Origin: a virus
IMG/VR virus record: IMGVR_UViG_3300045988_169460
DNA: 64,000 nucleotides
Direction: 5' to 3' (one strand)
Positions 18,178-55,285 of this stretch are shown one piece after another. The position numbers and the translations under genes are program-made. The notes under the pieces are model-generated. The model saw nothing but the letters and a program-made list of their open reading frames with translations, had not been told where the DNA came from and searched no databases. How positions within the stretch are numbered: position 1 is the first letter of the stretch; each line of letters opens with the position of its first letter.

Positions 18178-18873
18178 AAAACGTGGCTCCTGTGTATTAT
18201 TGCCGTAGCAATGGCGAAAATGGGATATAAAGTTTTATTCCTAACAAAAGAAATGTTGCCATCTCAATTAATAGATAGAATTGATGCTATATGGTCGGGT
18301 ATAAGTTATTCTCGTATTAAAGATGGTCAATTAGCACCACAAGAAGAAGAAAGATATCATAAGTATCTTTTAGAAGAAGCTCCAAAATATAAAGATAAAT
18401 TAATTGTTGAATTAATTGAAGGTGGTGTAATATCTTGTGGAAGTTCTATTGATTTACATAGACCTGATGTTTGTTTAATTGATGGTGGCTACTTAATGGC
18501 AGATGATTCTGAGGATGACGATTGGAGGGGCATTCTAGAAGTATGGCGAGGATTTAAAGCATTAGCCAGAAACAGAAAGGTTCCAATTCTTTGTACTTCA
18601 CAGTTAAAAGGAGAAACTGCAACATTAAGTAATATTTCTTATGTTAAGGCACTTGCCCAAGATTGTGATGCTGTTTATGGATTAGAACAAGATAAAACAG
18701 ATAAAGCGGAAAAAGAAATAAAAATAGTAACTTTAAAAGTACGTGATGGCGAATGGAAACCGCCTTTTAAAATGAGTTGGGATTTTACTGAAATGAAACA
18801 TGATTTATTATATGTAGAAGAAGAGAAGAAGAGAACACCAATAGCGGTAAAACAAATACAAAGGATTGAGTAG
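18178..18873 (+). CDS. dnaB: DnaB-like replicative helicase, exon 2
   Basis: The frame is open from 18178. RecA-like core motifs are present (LIDGGYLM, TSQLKG). Confidence 0.65.
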   Translation, partial: KTWLLCIIAVAMAKMGYKVLFLTKEMLPSQLIDRIDAIWSGISYSRIKDGQLAPQEEERYHKYLLEEAPKYKDKLIVELIEGGVISCGSSIDLHRPDVCLIDGGYLMADDSEDDDWRGILEVWRGFKALARNRKVPILCTSQLKGETATLSNISYVKALAQDCDAVYGLEQDKTDKAEKEIKIVTLKVRDGEWKPPFKMSWDFTEMKHDLLYVEEEKKRTPIAVKQIQRIE

Positions 18874-22927: not shown

Positions 22928-23135
22928 CAAATCTAGGGTGAAGTAAAATCCCTCTCAAAACGGTGAAAGCCTAACAGGTCAATACCGTGCCGAACTCTGT
23001 GAAAACAGCGGTGTAGAGACTTATAATGTATCGGCTATGTTTAAACATAAATCAATCGAATACATTTAATGGGGGATAGGAGCAAGCTCCTAAAGGTATA
23101 GTCCGACACTCTTGGCAACAGGAGAAAACAGAATG
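22928..23135 (+). mobile_element. small group-I-like intron 1 in polA
   Basis: Splicing 22927 to 23136 gives AKTVGFA-VDYGGSK (motif B K..NFG..YG). The core-like element AAGGUAUAGUCCGAC is present. U precedes the 5' splice site and the 3' terminal nucleotide is G. Confidence 0.6.
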
Positions 23136-23495
23136 GTAGATTATGGCGGTTCAAAAATAGCGGTAGCAAGAAATCTAGAAATAGATGAAAAGACCGCACA
23201 AGAATATATAGATAGGTATTTTGAAGGTTTTGCAGGATTAAAAAAATATGATAGAGATTTAATTCAATTTGCTAGAAAGAATGGTTATATAGAAACACTA
23301 TTTTCTGGGCATAAACGTCACTTGTGGGGGATAAATTCCCAAGATGGTAGAACACGCTCATACTATGAACGATTAGCAGTTAATTCAAAATCACAAGGGG
23401 CGGCGGCAGATTGCACAACATTAGCACAGATAGATGTGGATAATGATGTAGTATTAAAATCTATTGGTGCAAGACAAATACTTAATGTACACGAT
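23136..23495 (+). CDS. polA: family-A DNA polymerase, exon 2
   Basis: YGGSKIAVARNL...YIETLFSGHKRH...NSKSQGAAAD...ILNVHD. The last motif is motif C, interrupted after HD. Confidence 0.75.
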
Positions 23496-23812
23496 AAACT
23501 TTAGTCAAATAACTTGTCGTGTTTAAACTCTTCGATATGCTGGAACGCAAAAATACAGTATTACCAAAGAGTGACAATATACTGTATATCACGAAAGTGT
23601 GTAGCCAATCAGCAGGGAGGAAATGAGAGCATTTCACCCTCACAGACTAACAAAAGCATAGAATAGTAGGAACTGCACATTACTACTATTTGAGAAGTGA
23701 GTAGAGTACGGCTTTGTTGAGATACAAAGTGGGTTGACATCCTTAAATGGAAGCGGGGAGGCATAGTGCAGATGTATGATATAGTCGAGTGTGTTTTTAA
23801 GCATACGTTATG
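23496..23812 (+). mobile_element. group-I-like intron 2 in polA
   Basis: Splicing 23495 to 23813 gives NVHD-EIVMVCPK (HDE motif). GAUAUAGUCGAG element is present. U precedes the 5' splice site and the 3' terminal nucleotide is G. Confidence 0.6.
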
Positions 23813-30309: not shown

Positions 30310-30921
30310 ATGAAGATAGAAAATGTTAGAATATATGGTTTGCCAGAGAGCTTAATAGCCTCTGGCTATCCCATGTTATCTACAGAATTAAATGAAAAGG
30401 AATTTTTAAAGGAAGTAGAAGCGACAGAAAGAATAATTAAAAATAAATCTGGTAGTAATAAACATATAGAAAGAGGTATTAGATTAGGCAATTCTCCTTT
30501 AGGTAGCGGACATAATTGTGCTTTAAAGGGAATTACAGTACAATTTGATTTAACTTTTCCTCAGTATACATGGCAACAGTTACAAAGATATCACTATATT
30601 GATTTTATAAGTTCAATGAGCAAAATGCATCGTATTACAATGCTTGATTTAGATAAACATTGTCCTTTAGTGGATAATGAATTATTAAAAATTTCACAAA
30701 GATATGTAAATGCTTATAAAAAAGGTGAGATTGGCATAGATGCTTGTTTATCTAATATTCCTATGGGATTACAGATGACAGCACGAATGACTACAAATTA
30801 TTTACAATTATTATCTATTTATCATCAAAGAAATACTCATCGTTCAGATGAATGGAAAGAGTTTTGTTCTTGGGTAAAAACACTGCCTATGTTTAAAGAG
30901 TTGTGTTTAAAAGGAGAATAA
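30310..30921 (+). CDS. divergent ThyX-fold-like protein (catalytic motifs not conserved)
   Basis: By-eye alignment to ThyX: GHNCALKGITVQFDLTFPQYTWQQLQRYHYIDFISSMSKMH versus HETPFEH..F.F....P.FV.RQ..RHR..S.NE.S.RY. Also a C-terminal NYLQLLSIYHQR...W segment. Confidence 0.3.
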   Translation: MKIENVRIYGLPESLIASGYPMLSTELNEKEFLKEVEATERIIKNKSGSNKHIERGIRLGNSPLGSGHNCALKGITVQFDLTFPQYTWQQLQRYHYIDFISSMSKMHRITMLDLDKHCPLVDNELLKISQRYVNAYKKGEIGIDACLSNIPMGLQMTARMTTNYLQLLSIYHQRNTHRSDEWKEFCSWVKTLPMFKELCLKGE

Positions 30922-34034: not shown

Positions 34035-34523
34035 ATGAAAATTATAGCAGTAGATTTTGATGGAACATTATGTGAAAATAAGTACCCAGAAATAGGTGAG
34101 CCTGTTATTGGGTATTATCGAGGGTGGAAAGGTGATAAATACTTTTCTTGTCGCTTTCATTTTATTAAGCTTTTAATAGCTTTGCAAGAAATGGGGAATA
34201 AAATAATTCTTTTTACTTGCAGAGGTGGGGAACAATTAGAAGAAGCTGTAAGTTGGTGCGATAATCTATTTGGATTAAAGTTTGATGCAGTTAATAATGA
34301 TGTAGAAGAAACTTTACAAAGGTATGCTCCAACTCTTGAATTAAGAAATCAATTATCTGCTACAAGAAAGATTTATGCAGATGTTTATATAGATGACAGA
34401 AATTTAAATGCAGATGAATATTTAGAGAAGAATTTAATTTTATTAGATGCAAAATCTTTATATGATATGGGGATAACAGAAAATGCTACAGAATTTTTAA
34501 TTGAAAGGGTGTTGAATAAATGA
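34035..34523 (+). CDS. HAD-superfamily phosphatase / nucleotidase-like
   Basis: MKIIAVDFDGTL (DxDGT motif I). ATG 8 nt after GGGAG. Confidence 0.6.
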   Translation: MKIIAVDFDGTLCENKYPEIGEPVIGYYRGWKGDKYFSCRFHFIKLLIALQEMGNKIILFTCRGGEQLEEAVSWCDNLFGLKFDAVNNDVEETLQRYAPTLELRNQLSATRKIYADVYIDDRNLNADEYLEKNLILLDAKSLYDMGITENATEFLIERVLNK

Positions 34524-34882
34524 GAAAAATAGTTGTGGCTGGTACAAGAGAATTTAATGATTATAGATTATTATGTGATGTTTTAGATTTTCATATAAAT
34601 GGTGAACAAGTAATTATAATTAGTGGTAATGCTAAAGGGGCAGATTCAATGGGAGAGGTTTATGCTTCTTCTCATAATTTGAAATGTGTAAAATTTCCCC
34701 CTGATTATGAGACTTATCCTTCTAAAGTAGCCCCATTAAAAAGAAACGAGGAAATGGCAAAGGAAGCTACAGAAGGAATTATATTTTGGGACGGTGTTTC
34801 AAGAGGTACTTGGAATATGATTCAGCAATTAAGAAAATATAAGAAAAAAGTAACTATTATTAACTATAGGAAGTTAGTGTAA
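34520..34882 (+). CDS. SLOG-family protein (DUF2493-like)
   Basis: MRKIVVAGTREFND...IIISGNAKGADSMGE...PLKRNEEM pattern. Confidence 0.65.
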   Translation: MRKIVVAGTREFNDYRLLCDVLDFHINGEQVIIISGNAKGADSMGEVYASSHNLKCVKFPPDYETYPSKVAPLKRNEEMAKEATEGIIFWDGVSRGTWNMIQQLRKYKKKVTIINYRKLV

Positions 34883-35700: not shown

Positions 35701-37542
35701 ATGAAAAATGGATATACGTTATTTCTTTCTGGTGTTGAACCAGAAGAAAATTTCTATACTGCAATAGATGTTACCTCTAGTCTATTGCAGTCTTATTGGT
35801 ATATAAAGCGGCGTGGAAAAGATAAAATTGTAGAGCGTTTTGATAAAGTTAAGAAAAATTCTTTGTTAATTGATAGTGGAGCACATACTTTTCTCACCTT
35901 AGCAGAATATCAAGATAAGACAGTAGATTATTGGGAAGAGTATATAAAAGGATATATAGCTTTTGTAAGAAAACATAGAGAAAAAGTATTTGCTTGTGTT
36001 GAAATGGATATAGATACTTTAGTAGGAACAGAACAAGTAAATAAATGGAGAGAAGAATACTTTCATTCTTTAGAGGAAGAGGGCATTTCTGTTATTTATG
36101 TTTATCATGCAGAAAAGGGATTGGAAGAGTGGGAAAGAATGTGTAAAACATATTCCTATGTTGGGTTCTCTTACAATGAATTTGAAGATGCTATTTTAAT
36201 TGATAAATTATTTGAAATAGCAATGGAATATAAAACTAAAGTACATGGTTTTGCAGTATCGGGATATAGAGAATTATTAAAACATGAGTATTATACAAGT
36301 GACAGTACAAGTTGGATTACAGGAGCTCAATATGGAGAATTAAACTATTTTGAAGGTGGGAAATTAAAACGGCTCACAAAAGAAAAATGGAAAAATGAAT
36401 ATTATGCAAAAATACTTGATTTATGTACAAGTAAAAAGTTATTAGAAGCAGAAGCTCCTTATGAATTAATGCGTATTAGTGCTTTAAGTTATAAGAAATT
36501 AGAAGAGCATGTAAATGATATATTTAGAGGCAAAAGATATTGGATTGGAAGAAAGGAAGTGTCTAAAGTAGCGAGTAAGGGAAATTTACCGCCAGTAGAG
36601 TGGTTTTCAACTGATATGGAAGATTGGCAAGAATGGGCACAGAAATTAAATATAGACACGAATCTTCCTGATGAAGCAGGTAAATCATTAATTGTTGCTT
36701 GTTACAATTTTGTGACAGATAATCCTATTATAAATGAGTATCCTCTCGAAGAATTAATTGACTTATGTGGACTTTTTGGTGATAAGAAGTCGAATACTCT
36801 TACTAAGTGCCGAAAAGCCCTTAAAGAGCACTTTACAGCTCTCTTAAAGGGTAGTATGGATTTATCCACTTTGACAGAAGAAGAAGTAGAAGAGAAAAAA
36901 AATGTAGTTCCAAAAGAGCGGGAAGAGTATGTTCAAGAAAAAGAGTATGTAGAATGTACTGTTAGCAAGGAAGAGTGTCAAGGTTTATTAAAAGGGTTAT
37001 TAACTTCTGGTGTGACAGATGAAGCAGAGAAAGCTTTAATTGAACAGGGAATAGAGCCTATTTATGATGAGAATGGAAACATTAAAGCAGGTATTAAACG
37101 AATAAAGAAAAGAAAATCTTTAAGTTCAAGTGTGATGCCAGAGTTAAGTTGCAATATTTGTACTAAAGCACGGAGATGTCCTTTATATGAAGAAGGAATG
37201 CTTTGTGCTTATAATAAAATGTTTAAGCAATTTGATACAAGAAATCCCGAAGATGTAGTAGATGCTATGAGCAGTATTGCAAATTTAAGTTTAGAAAGAT
37301 TATCAAGGGCTGTGACATTTGAAAAATTAGATGGTGGCTTAAATACTAAAGAGGTAACAGAGACAATGGCAGAAGCATGGAAATATCTTGAAAAGATACA
37401 AGAAATTCAAACAAAGAGTGATAAAGTTATAGCAGAGCGTAGAGTTGTAACTTCTTCTAACGGCGATGTAGAAGTAAGAGAAAGTGTAACAGGAAATCCG
37501 CAAGGTTTATTGTCTGAGATTCTAAAAACAAAAAAAAGTTGA
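35701..37542 (+). CDS. dpdA: DpdA-like (TGT-superfamily) DNA guanine transglycosylase fused to a ~350-aa C-terminal region of unknown function
   Basis: N-terminal LLIDSGAHTF and VHGFAVSG resemble the TGT/DpdA catalytic regions. Adjacent to queC. The C-terminal part has a Cys cluster, SCNICTKARRCPLYEEGMLC. Confidence 0.45.
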   Translation: MKNGYTLFLSGVEPEENFYTAIDVTSSLLQSYWYIKRRGKDKIVERFDKVKKNSLLIDSGAHTFLTLAEYQDKTVDYWEEYIKGYIAFVRKHREKVFACVEMDIDTLVGTEQVNKWREEYFHSLEEEGISVIYVYHAEKGLEEWERMCKTYSYVGFSYNEFEDAILIDKLFEIAMEYKTKVHGFAVSGYRELLKHEYYTSDSTSWITGAQYGELNYFEGGKLKRLTKEKWKNEYYAKILDLCTSKKLLEAEAPYELMRISALSYKKLEEHVNDIFRGKRYWIGRKEVSKVASKGNLPPVEWFSTDMEDWQEWAQKLNIDTNLPDEAGKSLIVACYNFVTDNPIINEYPLEELIDLCGLFGDKKSNTLTKCRKALKEHFTALLKGSMDLSTLTEEEVEEKKNVVPKEREEYVQEKEYVECTVSKEECQGLLKGLLTSGVTDEAEKALIEQGIEPIYDENGNIKAGIKRIKKRKSLSSSVMPELSCNICTKARRCPLYEEGMLCAYNKMFKQFDTRNPEDVVDAMSSIANLSLERLSRAVTFEKLDGGLNTKEVTETMAEAWKYLEKIQEIQTKSDKVIAERRVVTSSNGDVEVRESVTGNPQGLLSEILKTKKS

Positions 37543-37607: not shown

Positions 37608-37925
37608 ATGAAGAGAATTAGTTATGGAAAAAGATTTAGATTATTAGAAGAAGGGTATATTGGATACAAGTGGTTTTCTAAAGGGTCAATATTTATGGCT
37701 ACAGGATTAATTAGTTTTATGGGTAATAATATATTCCGTGTTTATAATCCTGATGGCAGTTTAAGACAAGATTTGCATACTGGTAATGGACATGTAAATT
37801 TTTTTTTAAGTTTATCTCCTATATCAAAAGATGAGCTTTTAGCATCAGAAGAATGTTATTGGTTTTTAAATGATATAGAATTAAGAACTTATTTTAAAGA
37901 AATTGTCTATGAGGAATGGGAGTAA
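37608..37925 (+). CDS. WE-tail protein, body family B (ends YEEWE)
   Basis: Paralogue of 37931-38239. Confidence 0.6.
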   Translation: MKRISYGKRFRLLEEGYIGYKWFSKGSIFMATGLISFMGNNIFRVYNPDGSLRQDLHTGNGHVNFFLSLSPISKDELLASEECYWFLNDIELRTYFKEIVYEEWE

Positions 37926-37930
37926 GAGTT

Positions 37931-38239
37931 ATGAAAAAATACAAAGAAACTTTTATAGTAAAAAGTCAGTTTTCTGATGGATTAAGGACTTTTCCTAAAG
38001 GAACAATATTTGAAAGCACAGGAGTTTTTTTTGGCATTGAAACACTTTTTTGTGTTTACTATCCCGATGGAGTTCCTTATGCTTGTTTACATGATGGCAA
38101 TAGTGCTCAAATAATGCTTTTAAATAGAACACCTTTAACATTAGCTGAAATTCGAGCACAAGGTGATTGTCATTGGTGGGTTAGAAATTCTGATATTGAT
38201 GAATATTTTATACCAAAATCATCTTTAGAATGGGAGTGA
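37931..38239 (+). CDS. WE-tail protein, body family B (ends SLEWE)
   Basis: ATG 8 nt after GGGAG. Confidence 0.6.
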   Translation: MKKYKETFIVKSQFSDGLRTFPKGTIFESTGVFFGIETLFCVYYPDGVPYACLHDGNSAQIMLLNRTPLTLAEIRAQGDCHWWVRNSDIDEYFIPKSSLEWE

Positions 38240-38244
38240 AAAAA

Positions 38245-38508
38245 TTGAACATAATACTAGGAGAATATTTTATAGTTACTAGACCTTTTAGATATGAGGG
38301 CAATGTATTTCATAAAGATGATTTATTACGTGTAGCTAAAATATATAGTTGGTCTAAAGTTTTAGTTTCCAATAGAGCTTGGATATCAACTAAAGTAGGA
38401 CACACAGACCCAAAAAATCAATATAGTTTTGGTGAAGAAACAAATTGGAATATTGATACAGAATATTTATTTAAAAATTGTGTTCCTTATAGGTCAGAAT
38501 GGGAGTAG
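38245..38508 (+). CDS. WE-tail protein, body family A (ends RSEWE)
   Basis: TTG 8 nt after GGGAG. Confidence 0.55.
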   Translation: MNIILGEYFIVTRPFRYEGNVFHKDDLLRVAKIYSWSKVLVSNRAWISTKVGHTDPKNQYSFGEETNWNIDTEYLFKNCVPYRSEWE

Positions 38509-38513
38509 TGGAG

Positions 38514-38870
38514 ATGAAATATAAAGCAGGAGATGTAGTAAAAATTGACAAAACAAGATTTGTTATAGAAAGAGTTACTAAAAAAGGCTATATTTTATTT
38601 CCTCATATAGGATTTTTCGTAAAGGATTGCCAAATAAATAAAAAAATTAAAGTGAAGAAATCTTATGAATTAGGAGATAAATTCAAATGTCTATGTGACT
38701 TTAGTTCAGGGACTTCTGTGGCGAAAAAAGACAAACATTATATTTGTACACAGAAATTTTCAGATGGCACATATATGCTTACAAGAATAAAAAATAAAGA
38801 AGAGAAATTAAGAGTGAATACAAATCAGATTCATGCTTATTTTAGACATTATTTTGGAGGTTGGGAATAG
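38514..38870 (+). CDS. WE-tail protein (ends GGWE)
   Basis: ATG after GTGGAG. Confidence 0.55.
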   Translation: MKYKAGDVVKIDKTRFVIERVTKKGYILFPHIGFFVKDCQINKKIKVKKSYELGDKFKCLCDFSSGTSVAKKDKHYICTQKFSDGTYMLTRIKNKEEKLRVNTNQIHAYFRHYFGGWE

Positions 38871-39073
38871 TGCCAATAGGAACAAGAGTAAGAATAAGAG
38901 AAGATTTAAAAACTACAGAAACTTATGGTGGCGTAAGAGTTATAGAAGATATGCTAGTTTATGCAGGTAAAGAAACAACAATAATTTGGCATGAAGCTAA
39001 TGTATATCATATACTTTTAGATGATGGTTTTTACTATTGGACAGATGAAATGTTTATTAGTGAATGGGAATAA
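38870..39073 (+). CDS. WE-tail protein, body family C (ends ISEWE)
   Basis: GTG overlaps the upstream TAG, with GGAGG 9 nt upstream. Paralogue of 42037 and 46893. Confidence 0.55.
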   Translation: MPIGTRVRIREDLKTTETYGGVRVIEDMLVYAGKETTIIWHEANVYHILLDDGFYYWTDEMFISEWE

Positions 39074-39080
39074 AAAAGTC

Positions 39081-39109
39081 TTGACAAAATAAAATAGTTG
39101 TGGTATAAT
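39081..39109 (+). promoter_or_regulatory. sigma-A-type promoter; 37-bp block identical to 39934-39970
   Basis: AAAAGTCTTGACAAAATAAAATAGTTGTGGTATAATA. Confidence 0.65.
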
Positions 39110-39142: not shown

Positions 39143-39934
39143 ATGTGTATTATAATTTATAAACCAGCAAAAGCTACACTAAAAAAAGAAACATTAAAAA
39201 CAGCATTTGAAAACAATCCTGATGGTGCAGGATTTATGTACCAATCTGATTTACTTGAAGCTCCTAAAATGCAAAAGGGATTTTTTGATTTTGATAAATT
39301 TTATGAGGCATATGAGAAAGTGGCTGAAAGTGATAAAGGTTATAATATTGCTGTTCATTTTAGAATTGCAACGCATGGAGCTGTTAATAGTTTAAACTGT
39401 CATCCTTTTATTGTTAAAGAAAGTGTTGAAAAAACTATTAGCGAAAAAGGACAGTATAGTTCTTTATTTATGCAAAATGGTGTTATTAAAAGTATTTCTG
39501 TAAATAAGAAAGATAAATATAGCGATACTTGTAATTTCACCTATAAAATTATGTCTAAAATTAAAACATTAACAAGCATGAAGATAAAAGATATTCTGGA
39601 AACTATTGAATCTCCAAGTAGATTTTGTTTAATGCAAGAAGGGCGAAAACCTTTATTGATTGGTAGTTTCAAAAAAGATGGTGGAGTAAGCTTTAGTAAT
39701 GAATCCTATAAAGAAATAAAAATTGTTACTTCTTATCCTACTACTTTTGAAACTTATTTACTTGCATTCGAAGATTGCGATGCAAAAGATATTAGAGATA
39801 TTGAAACAGAACTTAAAGATGACCAATGTGGAATTATTGATGCTTATAATGTAGGAGATGTGACTTTCTTTGAAACGAACTATCTCCCTATTAGAGAAAA
39901 GATTGCAGGTAAAGAATTTCGATGTTATCGTTGA
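39143..39934 (+). CDS. Ntn-type (class II) glutamine amidotransferase-like protein, copy 1
   Basis: Met-Cys N-terminus (MCIIIYKP), NPDGAGFM, HFRIATHG...NCHPF. Confidence 0.65.
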   Translation: MCIIIYKPAKATLKKETLKTAFENNPDGAGFMYQSDLLEAPKMQKGFFDFDKFYEAYEKVAESDKGYNIAVHFRIATHGAVNSLNCHPFIVKESVEKTISEKGQYSSLFMQNGVIKSISVNKKDKYSDTCNFTYKIMSKIKTLTSMKIKDILETIESPSRFCLMQEGRKPLLIGSFKKDGGVSFSNESYKEIKIVTSYPTTFETYLLAFEDCDAKDIRDIETELKDDQCGIIDAYNVGDVTFFETNYLPIREKIAGKEFRCYR

Positions 39935-39940
39935 AAAGTC

Positions 39941-39969
39941 TTGACAAAATAAAATAGTTGTGGTATAAT
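39941..39969 (+). promoter_or_regulatory. sigma-A-type promoter; duplicate of the one at 39081
   Basis: Identical 37-bp block. Confidence 0.65.
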
Positions 39970-40001
39970 ATAAATACACTAAAAATAAAGGAGATAATAG
40001 T

Positions 40002-40394
40002 ATGAATTTTCGCATTAACGATGTAGTAACATTAAAACAAGGATTGACAGGTGAAAAAGAAAAGTATAGTGGCAAGACTTTAATGATTCGAGCGATTTCT
40101 GATGGTAATTACATTATGAAAGTACCAAATAAAACTGCACCAAAAGACAATCGTGAACTTATGGATGTAAGTTTTAATGACACTGATATTCAATTAAATC
40201 CTTTAGAAGTAAAGGTAGAAACTGATTCTGATGGGATAATTGATATTATGGCTAAAAATTCAAAAGATGAATGGATTGCAATTTTACGGTTACAGGATGG
40301 AGAATTATTGCGTAAAAAAGATTTAGCAAAACAAGGTTTTTCTGGCTTGAAGTTAGACTTTAAAGGAAGACTTCGGTTAGTAACCAGTTATTAA
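40002..40394 (+). CDS. hypothetical protein
   Basis: ATG after AAGGAG. Confidence 0.45.
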   Translation: MNFRINDVVTLKQGLTGEKEKYSGKTLMIRAISDGNYIMKVPNKTAPKDNRELMDVSFNDTDIQLNPLEVKVETDSDGIIDIMAKNSKDEWIAILRLQDGELLRKKDLAKQGFSGLKLDFKGRLRLVTSY

Positions 40395-40702
40395 TGTTAC
40401 CTGAATATATAAGTGCTGAAAATGGAATAAAGTATGTGCCTTTTACTGGCAATATTTTATTCCTTAAAAGTATATTATATGAACACAATAATTTTCCAAT
40501 AAGATTACTTTTAGAAGAAGAACAATTATCCGCTTTTATCATTGTTTACGTAACAGCAAAGAACTTAATTTGTGTGGATACAAGTTCAGAAGGTAAATTG
40601 TTTGAAAGTATTTTAAAAATACCTGTTAGCACTTTAAAAGAGCGTGTGTTTGAGGGAATAAATTATGAAATTTACATTAAACAAACTGCTTTAGGAGAGT
40701 AG
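40394..40702 (+). CDS. hypothetical protein
   Basis: TAATG overlap. Confidence 0.45.
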   Translation: MLPEYISAENGIKYVPFTGNILFLKSILYEHNNFPIRLLLEEEQLSAFIIVYVTAKNLICVDTSSEGKLFESILKIPVSTLKERVFEGINYEIYIKQTALGE

Positions 40703-40705
40703 CCA

Positions 40706-41041
40706 ATGAAAAGATATCACATAGCAGTAAAATTTGATAAAGAAAAGATAGCAAATATAGATTTCTGTAAATTACATTTAATATTTACTAAACATTTTAA
40801 ACAAAGAGCATGTTTAAAAAGGATTCCTAAGCCTTATAAAGCTCTGTTAAAAAGGGGCAAGATTTTTGAATATTATACAGATGATAATGAAAATTTGCTT
40901 AAATTTGTCATACGTTGTAAATACAATGAAAATTGTGATGTTTGTTATGTGTTAACTCCTACTGGCAGGGTTATTACTGGTTGGTGGCAAGATACAAATG
41001 ATAGTCATTCAACATTAAAAATAAATTTATATGAAAGGTGA
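40706..41041 (+). CDS. hypothetical protein
   Basis: ORF track. Weak resemblance (H..QR...R.I) to small RelE-fold/DUF4258-type proteins; not firm. Confidence 0.4.
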   Translation: MKRYHIAVKFDKEKIANIDFCKLHLIFTKHFKQRACLKRIPKPYKALLKRGKIFEYYTDDNENLLKFVIRCKYNENCDVCYVLTPTGRVITGWWQDTNDSHSTLKINLYER

Positions 41042-41048
41042 TAAGAAT

Positions 41049-41567
41049 ATGAATAAGAAAACTGATGAAATTAAAAAAAGTGGAGATGAAGATTTTCAAG
41101 CATTTGTAGACCTTTGTTCTGCTATTTTGCTTGGTGAGGATAAGAGAGCAGAATCAGTAAAGAAAGCAACTAAAGAACCTGATAATGCTGGTATCCCTAA
41201 AGGTTATACTATTGACACTAAATATTGGAAGCAATTTCCTCAATTAAAATCAGGAATGCTAGTTTTAGTTTCAAATGGTTGCTGGGGCAAAATTTCCGAA
41301 GATTGGGAAACTGGTCGTCTTTATTTTTATCATAAAGGAGAAGCTACTTCTTTAGATGAATTGCAAAAACAAACTGGAAAAGGTTTAGAAAAATTATTTA
41401 TAGAAGTATATGTTCCTAAGAATCAGTATGCAATTCATTCATACAATCCTGAGAATTTTAATTTGCATTATACTTGTTTGAAAAAGAAACCTGAAAAAGT
41501 GCGTATTTCTTTAGCAGAATTGCTGAAAAGAGCGGGGTTAGAAGGAAAGGAAGTTGAAATTCATTAA
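41049..41567 (+). CDS. hypothetical protein
   Basis: In-frame ATG after GAAAGGTGA. Confidence 0.45.
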   Translation: MNKKTDEIKKSGDEDFQAFVDLCSAILLGEDKRAESVKKATKEPDNAGIPKGYTIDTKYWKQFPQLKSGMLVLVSNGCWGKISEDWETGRLYFYHKGEATSLDELQKQTGKGLEKLFIEVYVPKNQYAIHSYNPENFNLHYTCLKKKPEKVRISLAELLKRAGLEGKEVEIH

Positions 41568-41791
41568 TGTTTGGATGTGCGGCTTGTTTAACGATTTTTT
41601 TATTCACTATTAACTTATTAGGCTATGTCTCTTTAAGTTATTGGATTATTTTCGCTCCAGTTATGTTTGCCTTTGGCATTACAGCTCTTTTTGGACTATT
41701 TGCAGTAGGTATTATAGCGACAATGGATTATATTGTTACATCAGAAAGGTTTAAAGAATGGAAGGACTTACACAAACAAGAAAAGAATTAA
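41567..41791 (+). CDS. small membrane protein
   Basis: Two TM segments. Confidence 0.45.
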   Translation: MFGCAACLTIFLFTINLLGYVSLSYWIIFAPVMFAFGITALFGLFAVGIIATMDYIVTSERFKEWKDLHKQEKN

Positions 41792-41970
41792 TAGAATCTG
41801 CTATTAAGCTTCTTTTAGATTGCGATGATTATGAAGGTTTAAATTTTAAAGAATACGATACGACACAAGAAATAGTAGAAATTCCAAGTAAAGAATTTGA
41901 GCTTTTACACAAACTTTCCCGAATTGGAAGTTTGTTTGTACTTTCTATTTTAGAGAGTGAGCAAAAATAG
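41758..41970 (+). CDS. hypothetical protein
   Basis: ORF track. Confidence 0.4.
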   Translation: MEGLTQTRKELIESAIKLLLDCDDYEGLNFKEYDTTQEIVEIPSKEFELLHKLSRIGSLFVLSILESEQK

Positions 41971-41971
41971 T

Positions 41972-42000
41972 TTGACAAAATCCCTTACATGTGATATAAT
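41972..42000 (+). promoter_or_regulatory. sigma-A-type promoter (TTGACA-17-TGaTATAAT)
   Basis: Consensus boxes. Confidence 0.65.
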
Positions 42001-42019
42001 GCATATGTAAGGGATTTTT
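41978..42019 (+). terminator. terminator hairpin whose loop contains the -10 box
   Basis: AAATCCCTTACAT, loop gtgaTATAATgc, ATGTAAGGGATTT, then TT. Confidence 0.6.
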
Positions 42020-42036
42020 ACTAAGGAGGCTTGCAA

Positions 42037-42255
42037 ATGATACCAATAGGAACAAGAGTAAGAATAAGAGAAGATTTAAAATTAGGTGTACTTTATAAAA
42101 ACAGAAATAATAAACGTGCTATGCATGCTTGTAGAGGCATGTTATTATTGGCTGGTAAAAAAGCGTACATAACAAATAATGTTAATAATATTTACTCTAT
42201 AGATAATGGTTTTTATTATTGGACAGATGGAATGTTTGAAACTGAATGGGAATAA
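42037..42255 (+). CDS. WE-tail protein, body family C (ends ETEWE)
   Basis: ATG after AAGGAGG. The N-terminus IPIGTRVRIREDLK is identical to that of 38870. Confidence 0.6.
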   Translation: MIPIGTRVRIREDLKLGVLYKNRNNKRAMHACRGMLLLAGKKAYITNNVNNIYSIDNGFYYWTDGMFETEWE

Positions 42256-42263
42256 AAAAAGTC

Positions 42264-42292
42264 TTGACAAAATAAAAAGAAAATGATATAAT
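42264..42292 (+). promoter_or_regulatory. sigma-A-type promoter (TTGACA-17-TGaTATAAT)
   Basis: Consensus boxes. Confidence 0.65.
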
Positions 42293-42322
42293 ACATTTAT
42301 CAAATCAAAAGGAGATGTAAAA

Positions 42323-43492
42323 ATGTTAAATTGCAAAATTTGCGGTAATGAAATTAGTGGAGCTTATACAATTTATCAAAAAGACGGAGTAGAATATCCA
42401 GCACACATTGAATGTGTCGAAGAAAACAAGCAACATTGTGATGAGTGCAATAAGTTTTTTGATAGAGAAGATTTAAAAACTACAACATTAGGAAACCATT
42501 ATTGCCCAGATTGTTTGTCTGAAAAAACTGTAGTTTGTGGAAAATGCGGTAAACACGTAGAAAATGCACCATTGAAAAGAGTAAATAGTGTATCTTATTG
42601 TCAAGAGTGCTTTGAACAGAAATGGGTATATTGTGTAAAATGTGGTAAAAGGGTTTTAAGAAGCAGAGCAAAAAATTTAAATAATACACATTATTGCGCT
42701 TCATGTGCTAGTTCTGTTGTTAAGGTAGAAAATTATAGTTACAAACCTACCCCTATATTTTGTGGTGTAGATAGTTCTCGTTATTTTGGTATTGAAGTCG
42801 AAACTGAGGGCAGAAAAAGTAATCTTTATGCAGAAGAAATTATTGGAGGTTCAAAAATTTTCTATGCAAAACATGATGGCAGTTTAAATAATGGAATTGA
42901 ATTTGTAAGTCATCCTTGCACTCTTAACTATTGGAGAGAGGAATCCAAGCTTGATGAATTTTGTAAAAGAGCGATTGGTTTAGGATTTAACTCTCATAAA
43001 ACTACTTCTTGTGGATTGCATGTTCATATTACTAAATCTACAGTAGAAAGGGAAGCTTTTGAAAAAGTGCTTCTGTTTTTAAGCAATAACTGGGATGATG
43101 TGGTGAAATTTACACGCCGTAAAAGTTCCAGCATTAATAGATGGGCGGCTAATAATTTAGGGGATGCACCAATGATTAAAACTTGTACTCTTGCACAAAA
43201 AATGAAATTAGTAAAAGAGTATTCTTCTGGCAGTCGTTATGTAGCAGTAAATGAAACATCTAAGACATATGAATTCCGTATTTTTAGAGGAACTTTAAAA
43301 CCTGAAACTATTTTAGCTTGCATTGAGTTTTGTGATGCTCTTATCAATTTATGTGCTAGTTTGCCTTTTGCAAACATTGAAACAGCTAATTTTAATACTT
43401 TAATAGAATTTGCAAAACCTAAAGGATGCTATAAAGAGCTTGTAGAATATTGGGAAACTCGAACAATGAAGAAGAATGTTGTTATTGAATAA
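42323..43492 (+). CDS. amidoligase (glutamine-synthetase-like COOH-NH2 ligase, Amidoligase_2-type) with an N-terminal array of about four zinc ribbons, copy 1
   Basis: Eight CxxC pairs in the first ~130 aa. Then FGIEVETEG, HDGSLNNGIEFVSHP, CGLHVHI, YEFRIFRGTL. Confidence 0.65.
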   Translation: MLNCKICGNEISGAYTIYQKDGVEYPAHIECVEENKQHCDECNKFFDREDLKTTTLGNHYCPDCLSEKTVVCGKCGKHVENAPLKRVNSVSYCQECFEQKWVYCVKCGKRVLRSRAKNLNNTHYCASCASSVVKVENYSYKPTPIFCGVDSSRYFGIEVETEGRKSNLYAEEIIGGSKIFYAKHDGSLNNGIEFVSHPCTLNYWREESKLDEFCKRAIGLGFNSHKTTSCGLHVHITKSTVEREAFEKVLLFLSNNWDDVVKFTRRKSSSINRWAANNLGDAPMIKTCTLAQKMKLVKEYSSGSRYVAVNETSKTYEFRIFRGTLKPETILACIEFCDALINLCASLPFANIETANFNTLIEFAKPKGCYKELVEYWETRTMKKNVVIE

Positions 43493-43528
43493 AAAACTTT
43501 TATACTTAAAGAAAGCAGAGTGATATAA

Positions 43529-44137
43529 ATGTGTATTGTAATTTACCAACCTAAAGGAAAGCAAGTGCAAAAAGCAATTTTACAGAAAGCATTTGAAAAC
43601 AATCCTGATGGTGCAGGATTTATGGTTCAAAAAGATAAAGAAGCACCATATATGATGAAGGGATTTTTTGATTTTGATAAATTTTATAAATCATATCTTC
43701 CATTTTCTAAAGGGGATTATAACGTAGCAATTCATTTTAGAATTGCTACACATGGAACAGTAAACAAAGATAACTGTCATCCATTTAAAATTTCTTCTGA
43801 TATTGCTGATACTGTTTTATTTAATGGCAGGGCAGATTCGCTGATAATGCATAATGGCATTATTAGTAGCATTATGACACCAAGAAATCTGCCATATAGT
43901 GATACAATGAATTTTATTGCAAAGATTTTATGTTGGATGAAAGACCTTAAATCTAAAGATTTGACAGAAGTATTAAAAAACCTCGAAAGTTATTCAAAGT
44001 TTTGTATAATGAGAAAAGGATTTGACCCCATTCTAGCGGGGCTTTTTATTGAAGATAGAGGTATTTTTTATAGCAATTCAACTTATAAATATAGTTATGT
44101 TAATACTTTTCAAAATTGTAAAACTTATTTAAATTAA
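43529..44137 (+). CDS. Ntn-type (class II) glutamine amidotransferase-like protein, copy 2
   Basis: MCIVIYQP, NPDGAGFM, HFRIATHG...NCHPF. Lies 37 nt after the amidoligase. Confidence 0.65.
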   Translation: MCIVIYQPKGKQVQKAILQKAFENNPDGAGFMVQKDKEAPYMMKGFFDFDKFYKSYLPFSKGDYNVAIHFRIATHGTVNKDNCHPFKISSDIADTVLFNGRADSLIMHNGIISSIMTPRNLPYSDTMNFIAKILCWMKDLKSKDLTEVLKNLESYSKFCIMRKGFDPILAGLFIEDRGIFYSNSTYKYSYVNTFQNCKTYLN

Positions 44138-46723: not shown

Positions 46724-46906
46724 ATGTTGTGCTATAAAGATATGTCATTTTGTTCTGCTAGCTACAAAGAAGCAGAAAAACCTTGTATTTGCACTGAATG
46801 TTTTAGGCATTTAAGCAAAGTTCCTGAAAATTTGCCTGATTATATGCCAGTAGCTGTATCTGATTTCTCTAAAGAATGTGAGGAATACAAATATGCGAGA
46901 ATTTAA
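46724..46906 (+). CDS. small Cys-rich protein
   Basis: ORF track. Confidence 0.45.
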   Translation: MLCYKDMSFCSASYKEAEKPCICTECFRHLSKVPENLPDYMPVAVSDFSKECEEYKYARI

Positions 46907-47132
46907 AATAGGAGACAGTGTTTTAATAAGAACAGATTTAGTAGTAAATCATGTATATAGGACTAATAATGGTGCTCAACGTGCTTATTTTGCAAAACAA
47001 ATGACAAAGTATAAAGGGAAGAAATTATTAATAGTAGGCAAGGATTATAAAGGTTATATATGTTCTTATAACGAAGAAGTTCTTGGTTGGACTTTTGTAA
47101 ATGAAATGTTTGAAGATATTGAATGGGAATAA
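46893..47132 (+). CDS. WE-tail protein, body family C (ends DIEWE)
   Basis: ATG after GAGGAA. Confidence 0.55.
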   Translation: MREFKIGDSVLIRTDLVVNHVYRTNNGAQRAYFAKQMTKYKGKKLLIVGKDYKGYICSYNEEVLGWTFVNEMFEDIEWE

Positions 47133-49316: not shown

Positions 49317-49781
49317 ATGATAATATTAAAGAAAACGGAAAGAATAATAAAAGTTCCTACAATGCTTTCTACATCACAACAAAGAAAAAATGATATATTA
49401 GTTGATTTATTACATCGTGCATACCCTTCAATAATACAAGGAGTATTATTACAGCGGTTAAAGAAATCTGAATTAGGAATAATAATGATGTCTCTAACAT
49501 GGAGAGTGGCAGGGGTAAGATATGTACAGCTATCAACAAATTATGGAGCCTCTTTAGTAAAGAGAGAGCAAGCATATAGAAGTATATGCAAAGTAGAGAT
49601 AAATAGAGAATTAATGAGAGATTTATTTTATAGTTTCGCAAATTTTTTTATTTATGATTTTTCTATAAGTGATTATAATAGAATATTTAAGGATTTTCTT
49701 TATACAGGCGATTGGTTTGAAGATTTACATACTTATTTAGGTTATTATATTCGTTATATGAATTTAAAGGAATGGGAGTAA
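49317..49781 (+). CDS. WE-tail protein (ends LKEWE)
   Basis: ORF track. Confidence 0.55.
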   Translation: MIILKKTERIIKVPTMLSTSQQRKNDILVDLLHRAYPSIIQGVLLQRLKKSELGIIMMSLTWRVAGVRYVQLSTNYGASLVKREQAYRSICKVEINRELMRDLFYSFANFFIYDFSISDYNRIFKDFLYTGDWFEDLHTYLGYYIRYMNLKEWE

Positions 49782-53767: not shown

Positions 53768-53796
53768 TTGACAATGATATTAGGATTTGTTAAGAT
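53768..53796 (+). promoter_or_regulatory. promoter (TTGACA-17-TGtTAAGAT) upstream of amidoligase copy 2
   Basis: Good -35 box and extended -10. Confidence 0.5.
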
Positions 53797-53830: not shown

Positions 53831-55285
53831 ATGCAAGAATTTGAATTTGTCGATAATGGAGTATTTGAAAAAGACGGTGTAGAATATAGGAATAAAGGGC
53901 AGGTTGAAATTGAAGATAAACTGTTCTACCTTTTCGTCACTTCTGATGTGCCGAATTTCGCCCCTCTTTATTTAAAAGACACCAAAAGATTTGTCGTTCT
54001 TGTTGTAACTGGCGATAAAGCTAGAGAGGCTACAGAAGAAGAACGTGTAATACTACAATATAAATGCAGAAGATGCATAAATTGTGGAGAAGTAATCACT
54101 AAAGAAGATTGGATTTGGATAGACGGAAATATCTTATGCGCTGATTGTTTTGAAAATTTATTGGGTGAAGAAATTGAAATATGTGATATTTGTGGATGCG
54201 CCCATTTTTCTGATAATGATAGAATGATATACATTCAAGAAGAAGAGCAATTAATTTGTGATGAATGCGCTGAACGTCATTACTTTCAATGTAGTAATTG
54301 CGGAACATGGACTAGAAATCCGTTACAAATGACTGATGGAGATTACATATGTAACGAATGCTTCGAAACAGAGGACTATTATATATGTGACGATTGCGGA
54401 AATGTTATAGACCCTGATACTGACGGTGTAATAATACGTAGTGACAGTGTTTATTGTGAGGATTGTGCTTCTGAACACGCAGACCCTAATGAAGAATATA
54501 TACACGAATATGGCTATTCCCCACGCATACTGTTTAATGAAGGAGAGGAATTGAATAGCTATCCGAAAAAAGGGGAAAGATATTTCGGCTTGGAAATTGA
54601 AACAGAATGTACTGGAGATATTACAGAAGTGATAGAAGATGAAGATTACTATTGGGCAACGGATGATAGTAGTATTCAATGTTTAAATGAGGGCTGTGCC
54701 GCTGAAATAGTAACGCAACCGACAACATTTAAAGCATGGCAGAATTACAGTGATACATTTTTTGATGCTTTAGAAAACAACTGCGTTACTAATAGTTCTT
54801 GCGGATTACATATTCACGTCAATAGGGATAGTGTATCAGATGAAACGATTGAAAAAGCAATATTATTTATTAGTAAACATTATGAAAAAGTAAGAATATT
54901 TGCAGATAGGTTGATGTGCAATATATGCAGTTATGCAGGGAATAATTTAGAGCGTTATAAAGACTACTATCCTAATAGCAAATCTATTAAGGAAGAAATA
55001 AATATTGTAAAAAAGGGGAAAGATAATGTACGGTATAAATATTTAGCTATAAATATCTTGCATAAAAATACATATGAATTTCGCATATTTAATAGCACTG
55101 TAAATAAGGATAGAATACTGGCATATATAGAATTTGTGGATGCATTGCTTGAGTACTGTTCAGAGAGTAACTTTTTACAAATTTATAAGTCTAATTTTTG
55201 GGACTTAGCGGAATACGCAAAGGGGAAAAAGAAATATAAACATTTAATGCATAGATTTTATGATATAATAAGTGAAGTATACTAG
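53831..55285 (+). CDS. amidoligase (Amidoligase_2-type) with an N-terminal zinc-ribbon array, copy 2
   Basis: Eight CxxC pairs. Then FGLEIETE, DDSSI...AEIVTQP, CGLHIHV, YEFRIFNST. Paralogue of 42323-43492. Confidence 0.65.
   Translation: MQEFEFVDNGVFEKDGVEYRNKGQVEIEDKLFYLFVTSDVPNFAPLYLKDTKRFVVLVVTGDKAREATEEERVILQYKCRRCINCGEVITKEDWIWIDGNILCADCFENLLGEEIEICDICGCAHFSDNDRMIYIQEEEQLICDECAERHYFQCSNCGTWTRNPLQMTDGDYICNECFETEDYYICDDCGNVIDPDTDGVIIRSDSVYCEDCASEHADPNEEYIHEYGYSPRILFNEGEELNSYPKKGERYFGLEIETECTGDITEVIEDEDYYWATDDSSIQCLNEGCAAEIVTQPTTFKAWQNYSDTFFDALENNCVTNSSCGLHIHVNRDSVSDETIEKAILFISKHYEKVRIFADRLMCNICSYAGNNLERYKDYYPNSKSIKEEINIVKKGKDNVRYKYLAINILHKNTYEFRIFNSTVNKDRILAYIEFVDALLEYCSESNFLQIYKSNFWDLAEYAKGKKKYKHLMHRFYDIISEVY

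Follow-up and report, generated by a model that had tools for sequence, protein, structure and literature searches.

An amidoligase and class-II amidotransferase module, present in two copies in a phage genome, that is probably separate from the adjoining 7-deazaguanine pathway

The window, i.e. the whole stretch of 64,000 nucleotides of viral DNA analysed here (IMG/VR record IMGVR_UViG_3300045988_169460), encodes two amidoligases and two class-II (Ntn) glutamine amidotransferase (GATase)-fold proteins that start with Met-Cys. All four open reading frames had been named, with their motifs, in a preliminary description made from the sequence; coordinates and motifs were confirmed, the enzyme families assigned to them proved right, and all four lie on the plus strand. 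The genes and the features around them are as follows.

38861-39073, SH3-like paralogue, 5' of GATase copy 1
39081..39109, plus strand, perfect sigma-70 promoter of GATase copy 1 (TTGACA, 17 nt, TATAAT, TG extension; 12/12 consensus, upstream regions also aligned)
39143..39934, plus strand, class-II (Ntn) GATase-fold protein, copy 1 (263 aa)
39941-39969, perfect promoter 3' of GATase copy 1
41972-42000, perfect promoter of the 74-aa SH3-like ORF
42031..42255, plus strand, small SH3-like ORF (74 aa, C-terminus EWE), directly 5' of amidoligase 1
42264..42292, plus strand, perfect sigma-70 promoter of the amidoligase 1-GATase copy 2 operon (12/12 consensus)
42323..43492, plus strand, amidoligase 1 (389 aa)
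43529..44137, plus strand, class-II (Ntn) GATase-fold protein, copy 2 (202 aa, minimal domain)
46878-47132, SH3-like paralogue
53768..53796, plus strand, promoter-like site 5' of amidoligase 2 (TTGACA, 17 nt, TAAGAT, TG; 10/12 consensus)
53831..55285, plus strand, amidoligase 2 (484 aa)

The four genes make up one module in duplicate. In the intact copy, amidoligase 1 is followed by GATase copy 2 after a gap of 36 nt (first given as 37 nt); the other copy is split across 14 kb into GATase copy 1, which has no adjoining amidoligase, and amidoligase 2, which has no adjoining GATase and whose partner is presumed to be GATase copy 1. GATase copy 1 is apparently monocistronic, since a further perfect promoter follows it, and the -35 context TCTTGACAAAATAAAA is repeated exactly at 39079, 39939 and 42262. 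The module genes thus lie behind their own promoters and outside any que operon. Expression from perfect sigma-70 promoters suggests that the module acts early in infection.

Both amidoligases match Amidoligase_2 (PF12224) above the Pfam gathering score (4e-9 for amidoligase 1, 1e-11 for amidoligase 2) and are 32% identical to each other. Amidoligase 1 consists of a tandem LIM-like zinc-finger array (residues ~4-128) and a glutamine synthetase (GS)-fold carboxylate-amine ligase core (residues ~150-389). Its CxxC motifs at residues 4, 39, 61, 72, 93, 104 and 125 make up three full CxxC...CxxC ribbons, preceded by a degenerate one; nine CxxC motifs lie N-terminal to the core in amidoligase 2, so that the original estimate of about four ribbons per protein was a fair one. 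In amidoligase 2, the ribbons (~79-212) follow an extra N-terminal region of ~75 residues, and the ligase core starts at ~245. G156xE158xE160, D185, E193, H233, E317 and R319 (amidoligase 1 numbering) are invariant among 62 divergent members. The AF2 model of amidoligase 1 matches YbdK/GCS2, the gamma-glutamylmethylamide synthetase GmaS, GS, PafA/Dop (weakly, TM about 0.3) and LIM proteins. Sequence and model thus show a large subunit that is a predicted ATP-dependent carboxylate-amine ligase of GS fold, with LIM-like zinc fingers attached to it in tandem.

The Met-Cys proteins do not reach the Pfam GATase_4 threshold of 23 bits, scoring 12.8 and 16.2. Despite this, their predicted membership in the class-II GATase family is solid: the family profile matches the GlmS glutaminase domain at 1.5e-8, hhalign gives a probability of 95% against GlmS with the Arg and the Asn-Gly aligned, and the AF2 model (pLDDT 92) matches GlmS, GFAT, EgtC and PurF. 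The family keeps Cys2, Arg71, Asn109-Gly110, Asp125 and further residues; Asp125, which lies outside the hhalign alignment, is probably the equivalent of the glutamine-binding Asp. Catalytic residues are therefore conserved across divergent homologues of both families, a point on which the preliminary description had made its proposal depend. Copy 1 is 49% identical to copy 2 and retains Cys2, NPDGAG, HFRIATHG, CHPF and SD; its HNG motif reads QNG, and the oxyanion Asn-Gly is kept. Nearest to the family in sequence and fold are the glutaminase domains that deliver ammonia in GlmS, GFAT and PurF, with EgtC weaker. By profile and modelled fold, the small subunit is thus shown to be a putative Cys-Ntn class-II glutamine amidohydrolase.

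Thousands of phages and small mobile elements carry the two-gene module, and they do so irrespective of DNA-modification genes and of odd protein tails. We surveyed 69 distant viral or mobile-element loci, which fall into 55 non-redundant groups, and 47 loci from bacterial genomes. A self-contained amidoligase-GATase cassette was found in 50 of the 55 groups, and the amidoligase is immediately 5' on the same strand in 56/69 loci; of the 47 genome loci, 40 have an amidoligase on the same strand, and for 29 of these the distance falls between -300 and +200 nt when maximal ORFs are measured. Amidoligase and GATase genes are co-transcribed and usually translationally coupled: the GATase start lies -20 to +60 nt from the amidoligase stop in 59 of the 78 genes with a recognisable Met-Cys start, and many overlap. 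The GATase is always a separate downstream gene because the Ntn protein must begin with Met-Cys. Among the 55 groups there is no conserved third gene, the next commonest neighbour family occurring in only 8. The commonest other neighbours are generic replication or packaging genes and the pair usually lies in replication or nucleotide-metabolism regions; in gut-bacterial integrative elements, where an integrase and a primase are its neighbours, it forms the cargo.

The module is the phage amidoligase and GAT-II neighbourhood predicted from phages and prophages by Iyer, Abhiman, Burroughs & Aravind 2009 (Mol Biosyst 5:1636), so that the preliminary description was right in stating that such neighbourhoods are known from phages, with no substrate assigned. 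It is annotated in many phages, among them Mycobacterium phage Marvin (gp105/gp106), LUZ24-like Pseudomonas phages, phiEco32 and Methylophilales phage MEP401 (gp05/gp06), with the same two families, gene order and adjacency as here; LUZ24-like phages add ATP-grasp, COOH-NH2 ligase and AIG2 genes that are absent from our phage. Unlike the neighbourhood of 2009, the module is duplicated here, with one copy split, and it adjoins a que/dpdA cluster among ORFs with W-[D/E] tails. Published roles (cell-wall modification, superinfection exclusion or secondary metabolites) are predictions only, and no experimentally shown function was found in the literature.

Altogether, this phage has in duplicate a self-contained module of two enzymes that is horizontally mobile. 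Our preferred reading, a tentative one set above a gamma-glutamyl alternative that is nearly as likely, is that amidoligase and Ntn protein would form a heteromeric glutamine-dependent amidoligase that acts on a macromolecule. The Ntn subunit would hydrolyse glutamine and release ammonia, the ligase would make an acyl-phosphate on the target carboxylate, and the ammonia would attack it to convert -COOH to -CONH2. The zinc-finger array would hold the target, most likely a host or phage macromolecule and not a free metabolite. The full class-II catalytic set is shared with GlmS, PurF and AsnB, and murT-gatD likewise encodes a glutaminase and an ATP-dependent ligase in coupled neighbouring genes. 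The synthase partner is GS-fold here, in contrast to the Mur-ligase, AANH or PRT partners of MurT/GatD, GlmS, PurF and AsnB; GatD is class I, and class-II domains usually form the N-terminal part of the synthase polypeptide and are not encoded separately downstream. To our knowledge, no GS-fold ligase has so far been described with a class-II GATase as its subunit. Also against the heteromeric reading are the variable C-terminal extensions, sometimes zinc-ribbon, on many GATase partners, which a pure ammonia donor would not need.

A possible, if somewhat doubtful, alternative is that the two enzymes write and process gamma-glutamyl bonds. The ligase would activate glutamate, either free or within a peptide, at its gamma-carboxylate and join this to a target amine, and the Ntn protein (GGACT in other elements) would cleave gamma-glutamyl amide bonds as an eraser, a deprotecting enzyme or a Dop-like deamidase that prepares the substrate. 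All closest fold relatives of the ligase (YbdK/GCS2, GmaS, GS, glutamate-cysteine ligase, PafA) activate this carboxylate, and the Ntn fold also has among its matches EgtC, a hydrolase of gamma-glutamyl bonds that is one of the known stand-alone class-II GATase-fold proteins and so counts against the preferred reading. Phage C75C1 encodes, downstream of an amidoligase, a fusion of the Ntn domain with a GGACT gamma-glutamylamine cyclotransferase, and in clostridial prophages other amidoligases are paired with GGCT instead of GATase; both point to cleavage of gamma-glutamyl amides and not to ammonia supply. The Pfam description of PF12224 names the partner a 'glutamine amidotransferase-like thiol peptidase'. 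Precedents are EgtA/EgtC, PuuA/PuuD, BtrJ/BtrG and PafA/Dop. EgtA/EgtC (ergothioneine) and PuuA/PuuD (putrescine) combine a GS/GCS-fold gamma-glutamyl ligase and a GATase-fold gamma-glutamyl hydrolase, EgtC being a stand-alone class-II Ntn protein, but in pathways with intervening enzymes and small-molecule substrates and without a zinc-finger array or a tight two-gene cassette. PafA, a GS-fold ligase, acts on the C-terminal Glu of the small protein Pup and works alongside an amidase that also belongs to the pupylation system; the second enzyme of the phage module, however, is not a PafA paralogue but an Ntn GATase, and there is neither a Pup-like disordered GG[QE] protein nor a proteasome gene. 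Glutaminase plus synthase is favoured because a coupled ligase and same-bond hydrolase, with no intervening enzyme or conserved third gene, would be futile, and the Ntn family is nearer to GlmS and PurF than to EgtC.

It is improbable that the pair amidates or aminoacylates a hypermodified DNA base, in this phage by turning DNA-borne 7-carboxy-7-deazaguanine (CDG) into its amide, as the preliminary description had suggested, or by placing an acyl group on preQ1, with the zinc fingers binding DNA. The window does contain queD, queE and queC (confirmed by Pfam) and a DpdA-like gene (confirmed by tblastn with annotated DpdA proteins), and members of this lineage carry the pair 1.6-6 kb downstream of queC-dpdA. 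The pair's usual location in replication or nucleotide-metabolism regions would also fit, and some thymidine-hypermodification clusters include functionally uncharacterised genes of amidoligase and amidotransferase Pfam families (Lee et al. 2021, PMC8989533). Against this, QueC, QueD, QueE and DpdA were found within 8-10 kb of the pair in 0/55 viral groups and 0/47 genome loci, and minimal integrase/primase elements carry the pair without base-modifying genes. Relatives of the M6-type aGPT-Pplase, 5-HMUDK, PLP and rSAM proteins are in no pair-bearing locus, and GenBank phages with DpdA (43 records) share no record with pair-bearing phages among the matches listed (40/43). CDG to ADG to preQ0 is QueC's own reaction, the module has separate promoters, and LIM-like zinc fingers are typically protein-binding. 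In the Gat-QueC of phage 9g and Crenarchaeota (archaeosine formation), a GATase domain does work with a 7-deazaguanine enzyme, and phage 9g also has DpdA, but the QueC of the window is a plain 202-aa protein and the Ntn family is not similar to the N-terminal domain of 9g Gat-QueC (hhalign probability 3.6%, BLASTP E 12). The module is probably not part of the neighbouring que/dpdA pathway.

A second proposed substrate, the C-terminal Glu of the WE-tailed proteins, rests on 16 such ORFs in the window (18 in the first count; 0.13 expected by chance), with WE or WD tails in relatives of the phage, two WE-tailed SH3-like ORFs directly 5' of GATase copy 1 and amidoligase 1, and the likeness of the ligase fold to PafA. 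That the ligases modify the acidic last residue of such small proteins by Pup/PafA-, RimK- or TTL-like logic is nevertheless very unlikely, as W[DE] tails are essentially absent from unrelated pair-bearing loci (5/2802 genes), the last residue may be Asp or Glu, so that gamma-carboxylate chemistry is not conserved, many of the tails overlap a Shine-Dalgarno or coupling signal, TGGGA, and promoters separate the small upstream ORFs from the enzymes. QueC/DpdA and WE-tailed ORFs stand beside the pair only in close relatives of this phage; pair-bearing relatives with neither que genes nor WE tails therefore exist. The preliminary description had named such relatives as telling against it if they also had a demonstrated unrelated substrate, and no such substrate was found. 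As a function of the whole family, the que and WE-tail substrates are not supported; lineage-specific co-option of the pair for either is a slight possibility.

The SH3-like ORF is homologous to two N-terminal domains fused to the amidoligase P0111 (pairwise E 2e-6 and 5e-11), a fusion that would favour a link between tails and ligases; the SH3-like family is mostly stand-alone and generally not adjoining amidoligases, and the ORF only possibly belongs with the module.

The module consists of an amidoligase gene followed by a gene for a Met-Cys amidotransferase (GATase); the window holds one intact and one split copy. The four reading frames proved to be exactly as given in the preliminary description, with all coordinates confirmed:

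39143-39934, plus strand: GATase 1, 263 aa, Met-Cys start
42323-43492, plus strand: amidoligase 1, 389 aa, Pfam Amidoligase_2 at 4e-9
43529-44137, plus strand: GATase 2, 202 aa, Met-Cys start
53831-55285, plus strand: amidoligase 2, 484 aa, Pfam Amidoligase_2 at 1e-11

In the Pfam profile search both amidoligases, which are 32% identical, scored above the cutoff of 22 bits for Amidoligase_2 (PF12224; 37.2 and 45.6 bits). Three matching PHROGs (16683, 2443, 7469) are annotated 'amidoligase', the others as unknown. In a viral structure library, dozens of matching proteins already bear the name 'amidoligase enzyme'; besides those of Pseudomonas phage tf, Mycobacterium phage Tesla and crAss-like phages, there are proteins from Cellulophaga, Cronobacter, Vibrio and Agrobacterium phages, and even from giant viruses. 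The family is large, with 1,162 matches among 90% clusters and, at 50% identity, at least 22,106 clusters at E ≤ 0.001 and at least 6,367 at E ≤ 1e-30. Three CxxC...CxxC ribbons and a YxYKPxPxF linker are invariant in 31 aligned close-to-moderate homologues. Among 62 very divergent amidoligases, including both window copies, G156, E158, E160, D185, E193, G231, H233, E317 and R319 are invariant and the core-proximal ribbon is invariant or nearly so. The core of the AF2 model (pLDDT 86) matches YbdK/GCS2 (1r8g, 1tt4), GmaS (9qur), GS, PafA/Dop and glutamate-cysteine ligase with a probability of ~1.0, but with modest TM scores (0.3-0.44). Its N-terminus matches tandem LIM domains, a likeness also detected by profile (PINCH LIM4-5, 2.6e-5). 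Alignments and models show the amidoligases as predicted GS-fold, ATP-dependent carboxylate-amine ligases with a LIM-like array. This array suggests that the target is a protein, or at least a macromolecule.

The two GATases are 49% identical and stayed below the Pfam gathering thresholds of GATase_4, GATase_6 and GATase_7 (12.8 and 16.2 bits vs 23 for GATase_4). Homologues in other elements do pass GATase_6 or GATase_4, and several of the 91 homologues in a large protein database reach GATase_4 or GATase_6. The family profile matched the glutaminase domain of GlmS (1.5e-8), PurF and the stand-alone class-II domains 3mdn and 1te5. In an alignment of 32 sequences, M1, C2, N25-P-D-G-A-G30, H69, R71, T74, H75, G76, H84, P85, F86, H108, N109, G110, D125, K157, S182 and N183 are invariant or nearly so; at least 90% begin with M1-C2, as do both window copies and also a fusion protein of phage C75C1, and R71, N109 and G110 are invariant. 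According to hhalign against GlmS (95% probability), R71 aligns with the Arg of HTRWATHG and N109-G110 with HNG. The GlmS profile alignments end before D125, which is invariant in an S-D-T motif and is presumably equivalent to the Asp of GlmS that binds the α-amino group of the substrate. The AF2 model (pLDDT 92) has the four-layer Ntn fold and matches the GlmS glutaminase domain, GFAT-1, EgtC and PurF (E down to 6e-7, TM ~0.6). Based on the conserved residues, the matches to GlmS and the modelled fold, the Met-Cys protein is a predicted, catalytically intact class-II Ntn amidohydrolase for a glutamine-type (γ-glutamyl amide) substrate. The assignments of the preliminary description hold for both families, by profile (Amidoligase_2 directly; GATase_4 below threshold, with the family profile hitting GlmS) and by conservation of Cys2 and of the catalytic Glu/His set.

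The genes are served by their own promoters. The four perfect sites listed here match the sigma-70 consensus at 12/12 positions and have a 17-nt spacer and a TG extension:

39081-39109, plus strand: perfect sigma-70 promoter
39941-39969, plus strand: perfect sigma-70 promoter
41972-42000, plus strand: perfect sigma-70 promoter
42264-42292, plus strand: perfect sigma-70 promoter
53768, plus strand: promoter-like site before amidoligase 2, 10/12 consensus

At three of the four perfect promoters, the 16-nt −35 context TCTTGACAAAATAAAA is present as exact copies. GATase 1 is apparently monocistronic, a small SH3-like ORF (42031-42255) forms a unit of its own, and amidoligase 1 and GATase 2 form a promoter-led operon. 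Since they have sigma-70 promoters of their own, the enzymes lie outside any que operon. They look like genes that depend on the host RNA polymerase and, judging from the promoters, the pair is probably expressed early. The four extended −10 promoters lie within 3.3 kb, which they divide into very short units, some of them monocistronic; similar sites also follow 12008 and 47132.

The distant comparison set comprised 69 loci (62 from IMG/VR, the cultured carriers MEP401 and Marvin, and five integrative elements of gut bacteria), de-replicated to 55 groups. Close relatives of the window phage were not counted as independent evidence because they are too closely related. The amidoligase is directly upstream on the same strand at 56 of the 69 loci, and 50 of the 55 groups have an amidoligase and 48 a GATase. 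Terminase, SNF2 and DnaB helicases, 5'-3' exonuclease and a MazZ-like dNTP diphosphohydrolase recur as neighbours. Yet the commonest other family was found in just 8 of the 55 groups, and this neighbour clustering found no conserved third partner gene. Bacterial genomes gave a similar picture: a same-strand amidoligase is present at 40 of 47 loci (from Coriobacteriia, Victivallaceae, Clostridia, Bacilli, Bacteroidota and one gammaproteobacterium), in 29 of these 40 within −300 to +200 nt (maximal-ORF measure). In the small elements of gut bacteria the pair is cargo, and the remainder consists of integrase, D5_N/DUF5906 primase and excisionase-like HTH proteins; plasmid carriage is rare (only 8 records). 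The spacing is narrow: of the 78 GATase genes in which a Met-Cys start could be recognised, 59 begin −20 to +60 nt from the amidoligase stop, and the surveyed loci contained no credible fusion of the two. The absence of fusions fits the fact that an Ntn enzyme must have its Cys free at the N-terminus, which also explains the fixed gene order. The pair is a closed, self-sufficient two-gene unit. An apparent amidoligase-GATase fusion at one locus (L098) comes from a high-GC genome and is probably an artefact of ORF extension, and the longest amidoligases and GATases carry no informative extra domains beyond the zinc ribbons, the C75C1 fusion excepted.

Tandem double pairs recur at loci L030, L048, L052 and L089. 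The extreme is a 440-kb contig, IMGVR_UViG_3300001528_000580 (L038 and L068), where about five GATase and at least five amidoligase paralogues are arranged in two arrays. The duplication in the window is thus typical; what is unusual is the 14 kb that separate the two genes of the second pair. Close relatives keep the order QueC, DpdA-like protein, small ORFs, GATase 1, more ORFs, amidoligase and GATase 2.

What, then, is the reaction? We tentatively prefer a heteromeric glutamine-dependent amidoligase, by which a target carboxylate would be converted to an amide. This model is preferred because the nearest relatives of the Ntn protein are glutaminase domains that deliver ammonia, because the genes are coupled like subunits of one enzyme and because ligating and hydrolysing one bond would be futile in a system that lacks a third gene. 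The same futility weighs against a γ-glutamyl chemistry of ligation and hydrolysis, as in EgtA/EgtC, PuuA/PuuD, BtrJ/BtrG or PafA/Dop, which is nevertheless possible and nearly as likely. In its favour, every structural relative of the amidoligase activates the γ-carboxylate of Glu, some amidoligases are partnered by GGCT instead, and many GATase partners have variable C-terminal extensions of their own. A further case is downstream of an amidoligase in phage C75C1, where the Ntn domain, with Cys2 kept, is fused to a γ-glutamylamine cyclotransferase:

L086:4001-4897 (phage C75C1, OQ984151): annotated gamma-glutamyl cyclotransferase; class-II Ntn half plus GGACT/AIG2 domain

One may speculate that both types of partner free an amine (NH3 or R-NH2) from a γ-glutamyl donor for use by the ligase, which would unify the two chemistries.

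The preliminary description had proposed two candidate substrates encoded in the window. Its first candidate was 7-carboxy-7-deazaguanine or its DNA-borne form. The window does encode queD (PTPS), queE (radical SAM) and queC, all confirmed by Pfam, and a DpdA-like protein of 613 aa (35701-37542) whose first ~270 residues resemble phage DpdA proteins, e.g. those of 9g and Iggy. Its only full-length match is in Bacillus phage BCD7, and the long C-terminal part matches BCD7 alone, without a Pfam hit. However, QueC and DpdA occur near the pair solely in close relatives of the window phage: QueC, QueD, QueE and DpdA were found at none of the 69 distant loci (0/55 groups) and at none of the 47 bacterial-genome loci. 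Conversely, 43 GenBank phage records have a DpdA match, and of those listed (40 of 43) none is among the listed pair-bearing phages. QueC itself catalyses the ATP- and ammonia-dependent steps from CDG via ADG to preQ0. With this activity already assigned, separate promoters and no co-occurrence outside the lineage, deazaguanine is not supported as the substrate. A split Gat-QueC with GATase 1 as the orphan Gat part was also considered and rejected, GATase 1 having no similarity to the Gat domain of 9g Gat-QueC. Directly upstream of queC, and kept there in the relatives L003-L005, lies a gene for a YAcAr/SLOG-family protein (34520-34882; 5e-15), and queE is followed by a weakly ThyX-like ORF (30310-30921; E 0.008). 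Both could be accessory to the deazaguanine cluster.

The second candidate was the C-terminal Glu of small proteins ending in Trp-Glu, to be used by Pup/PafA- or RimK-like chemistry. These tails are real and far above chance, although the count is 16 and not 18: among ORFs of 50 aa or more, 16 on the plus strand terminate in -WE versus 0.13 expected, and none on the minus strand of the window. They span 1943-51651 (e.g. 37608-37925, 38230-38508, 42031-42255 and 49317-49781). In L006 and L007, relatives of ~55% identity that keep both GATases and an amidoligase, 22 of 50 plus-strand genes end in -WD. At unrelated pair-bearing loci W[DE] tails were found on just 5 of 2,802 genes; the tails are lineage-specific, and outside this lineage the co-occurrence survey that had been proposed links neither them nor the que/dpdA genes to the pair. 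The nucleotide sequence of the tail is TGGGA(G/A/T)T(A/G)(A/G), with TGGGA plus stop codon as common core. Eight of the 16 ORFs use GAG (giving GGGAG), mostly where a start codon lies 5-10 nt downstream or overlaps, so the signal may in part be an element for coupling or a Shine-Dalgarno sequence. This can account for the tail only in part because it is kept before promoters without a coupled gene; the other eight ORFs have GAA, and a promoter comes next after four of them. The system also differs from Pup/PafA/Dop, in which the modifier is small, disordered and GG[QE]-terminated, PafA and Dop are paralogues and there is a proteasome linkage, whereas the window has W[DE] tails on diverse small ORFs, an Ntn GATase partner and no recurrent third gene. 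On present evidence, que/dpdA genes and W-[D/E] tails beside the pair are a lineage-specific coincidence. It is very improbable that the duplicated module was co-opted in this lineage such that one copy tailors DNA-borne 7-deazaguanine (amide or aminoacyl forms beyond dPreQ0, dADG and dG+) and the other caps C-terminal Trp-Asp/Glu tails. W-[D/E] tails are found on 20-45% of the small early proteins of the phage, and a tail-capping copy, if true, would be a new viral post-translational tagging system.

Some thymidine-hypermodification clusters contain Pfam amidoligase and amidotransferase genes of unknown function (Lee et al. 2021, PMC8989533). A link to this pathway was rejected, as relatives of M6 gp51-54 and gp58 were found at no pair-bearing locus in single-sequence searches of limited sensitivity; aGPT-Pplase3 gave one weak match (E 7e-4) among the 62 amidoligases. 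Most simply, the pair has a tendency to lie in replication and nucleotide-metabolism modules, which are also the home of base-modification clusters. A MazZ-like dATP/dGTP diphosphohydrolase N-terminal domain (4.7e-26; e.g. L027:19505-19870) lies near the pair in 6 of 55 groups, including those of L027 and L082, and hints that some carriers remodel dNTP pools. A known anti-phage defence system was rejected, as none of the four proteins matched a PADLOC-DB v2 model.

A small SH3-like protein was considered and rejected as an obligate partner; one amidoligase (P0111) carries such domains:

38861-39073, plus strand: SH3-like family (weak Pfam SH3_15)
42031-42255, plus strand: SH3-like family (weak Pfam SH3_15)
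46878-47132: SH3-like family (weak Pfam SH3_15)
L089:8001-9680: P0111, zinc-ribbon amidoligase with tandem N-terminal SH3-like fusion, in a double amidoligase-GATase locus

The ORFs at 42031-42255 and 46878-47132 are homologous to the two N-terminal domains of P0111 (pairwise E 2e-6 and 5e-11). The fusion is real but rare: the 286 database relatives are overwhelmingly stand-alone proteins of 60-146 aa that do not adjoin amidoligases, and a distant member that was examined has no amidoligase nearby.

The amidoligase + GAT-II neighbourhood was reportedly defined by Iyer et al. in 2009, and the window module, duplicated and partly split, belongs to it. Annotated examples are found in Marvin-cluster, LUZ24-like and OM43 phages, and our literature search found no experimental characterisation of the module. 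The zinc-finger amidoligase/class-II GATase cassette, which is often duplicated and whose carriers include phages of many phyla, crAss-like phages, jumbo phages and the small integrative elements of gut bacteria, is among the larger 'known unknowns' of mobile-element biology. To this the survey adds a closed unit with no third partner, probable early expression and a predicted macromolecule-binding LIM-like array, which together narrow the hypotheses to an enzyme that would modify a host or phage macromolecule. It also argues against assigning the module to an adjoining pathway, be it deazaguanine or thymidine hypermodification. For experiments, the window locus is no better an entry point than the cultured carriers Marvin, the LUZ24-like phages and MEP401.

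Some further features of the window deserve mention. At its start, a reverse-transcriptase region (RVT_1, 5e-13) is apparently split in two ORFs (46-339 and 412-1062), near a 931-aa tail-fibre-like gene (5769-8564). A LAGLIDADG homing-endonuclease ORF (17171-17941; Pfam 8.6e-14) lies between ORFs 16611-17180 and 18211-18873, whose translations look like a DnaB-type helicase in two pieces, which points to the insertion of an intron or intein. A similar interruption seems to affect the putative DNA polymerase gene (21263-22936, then 23112-23504), which was identified from its translations.
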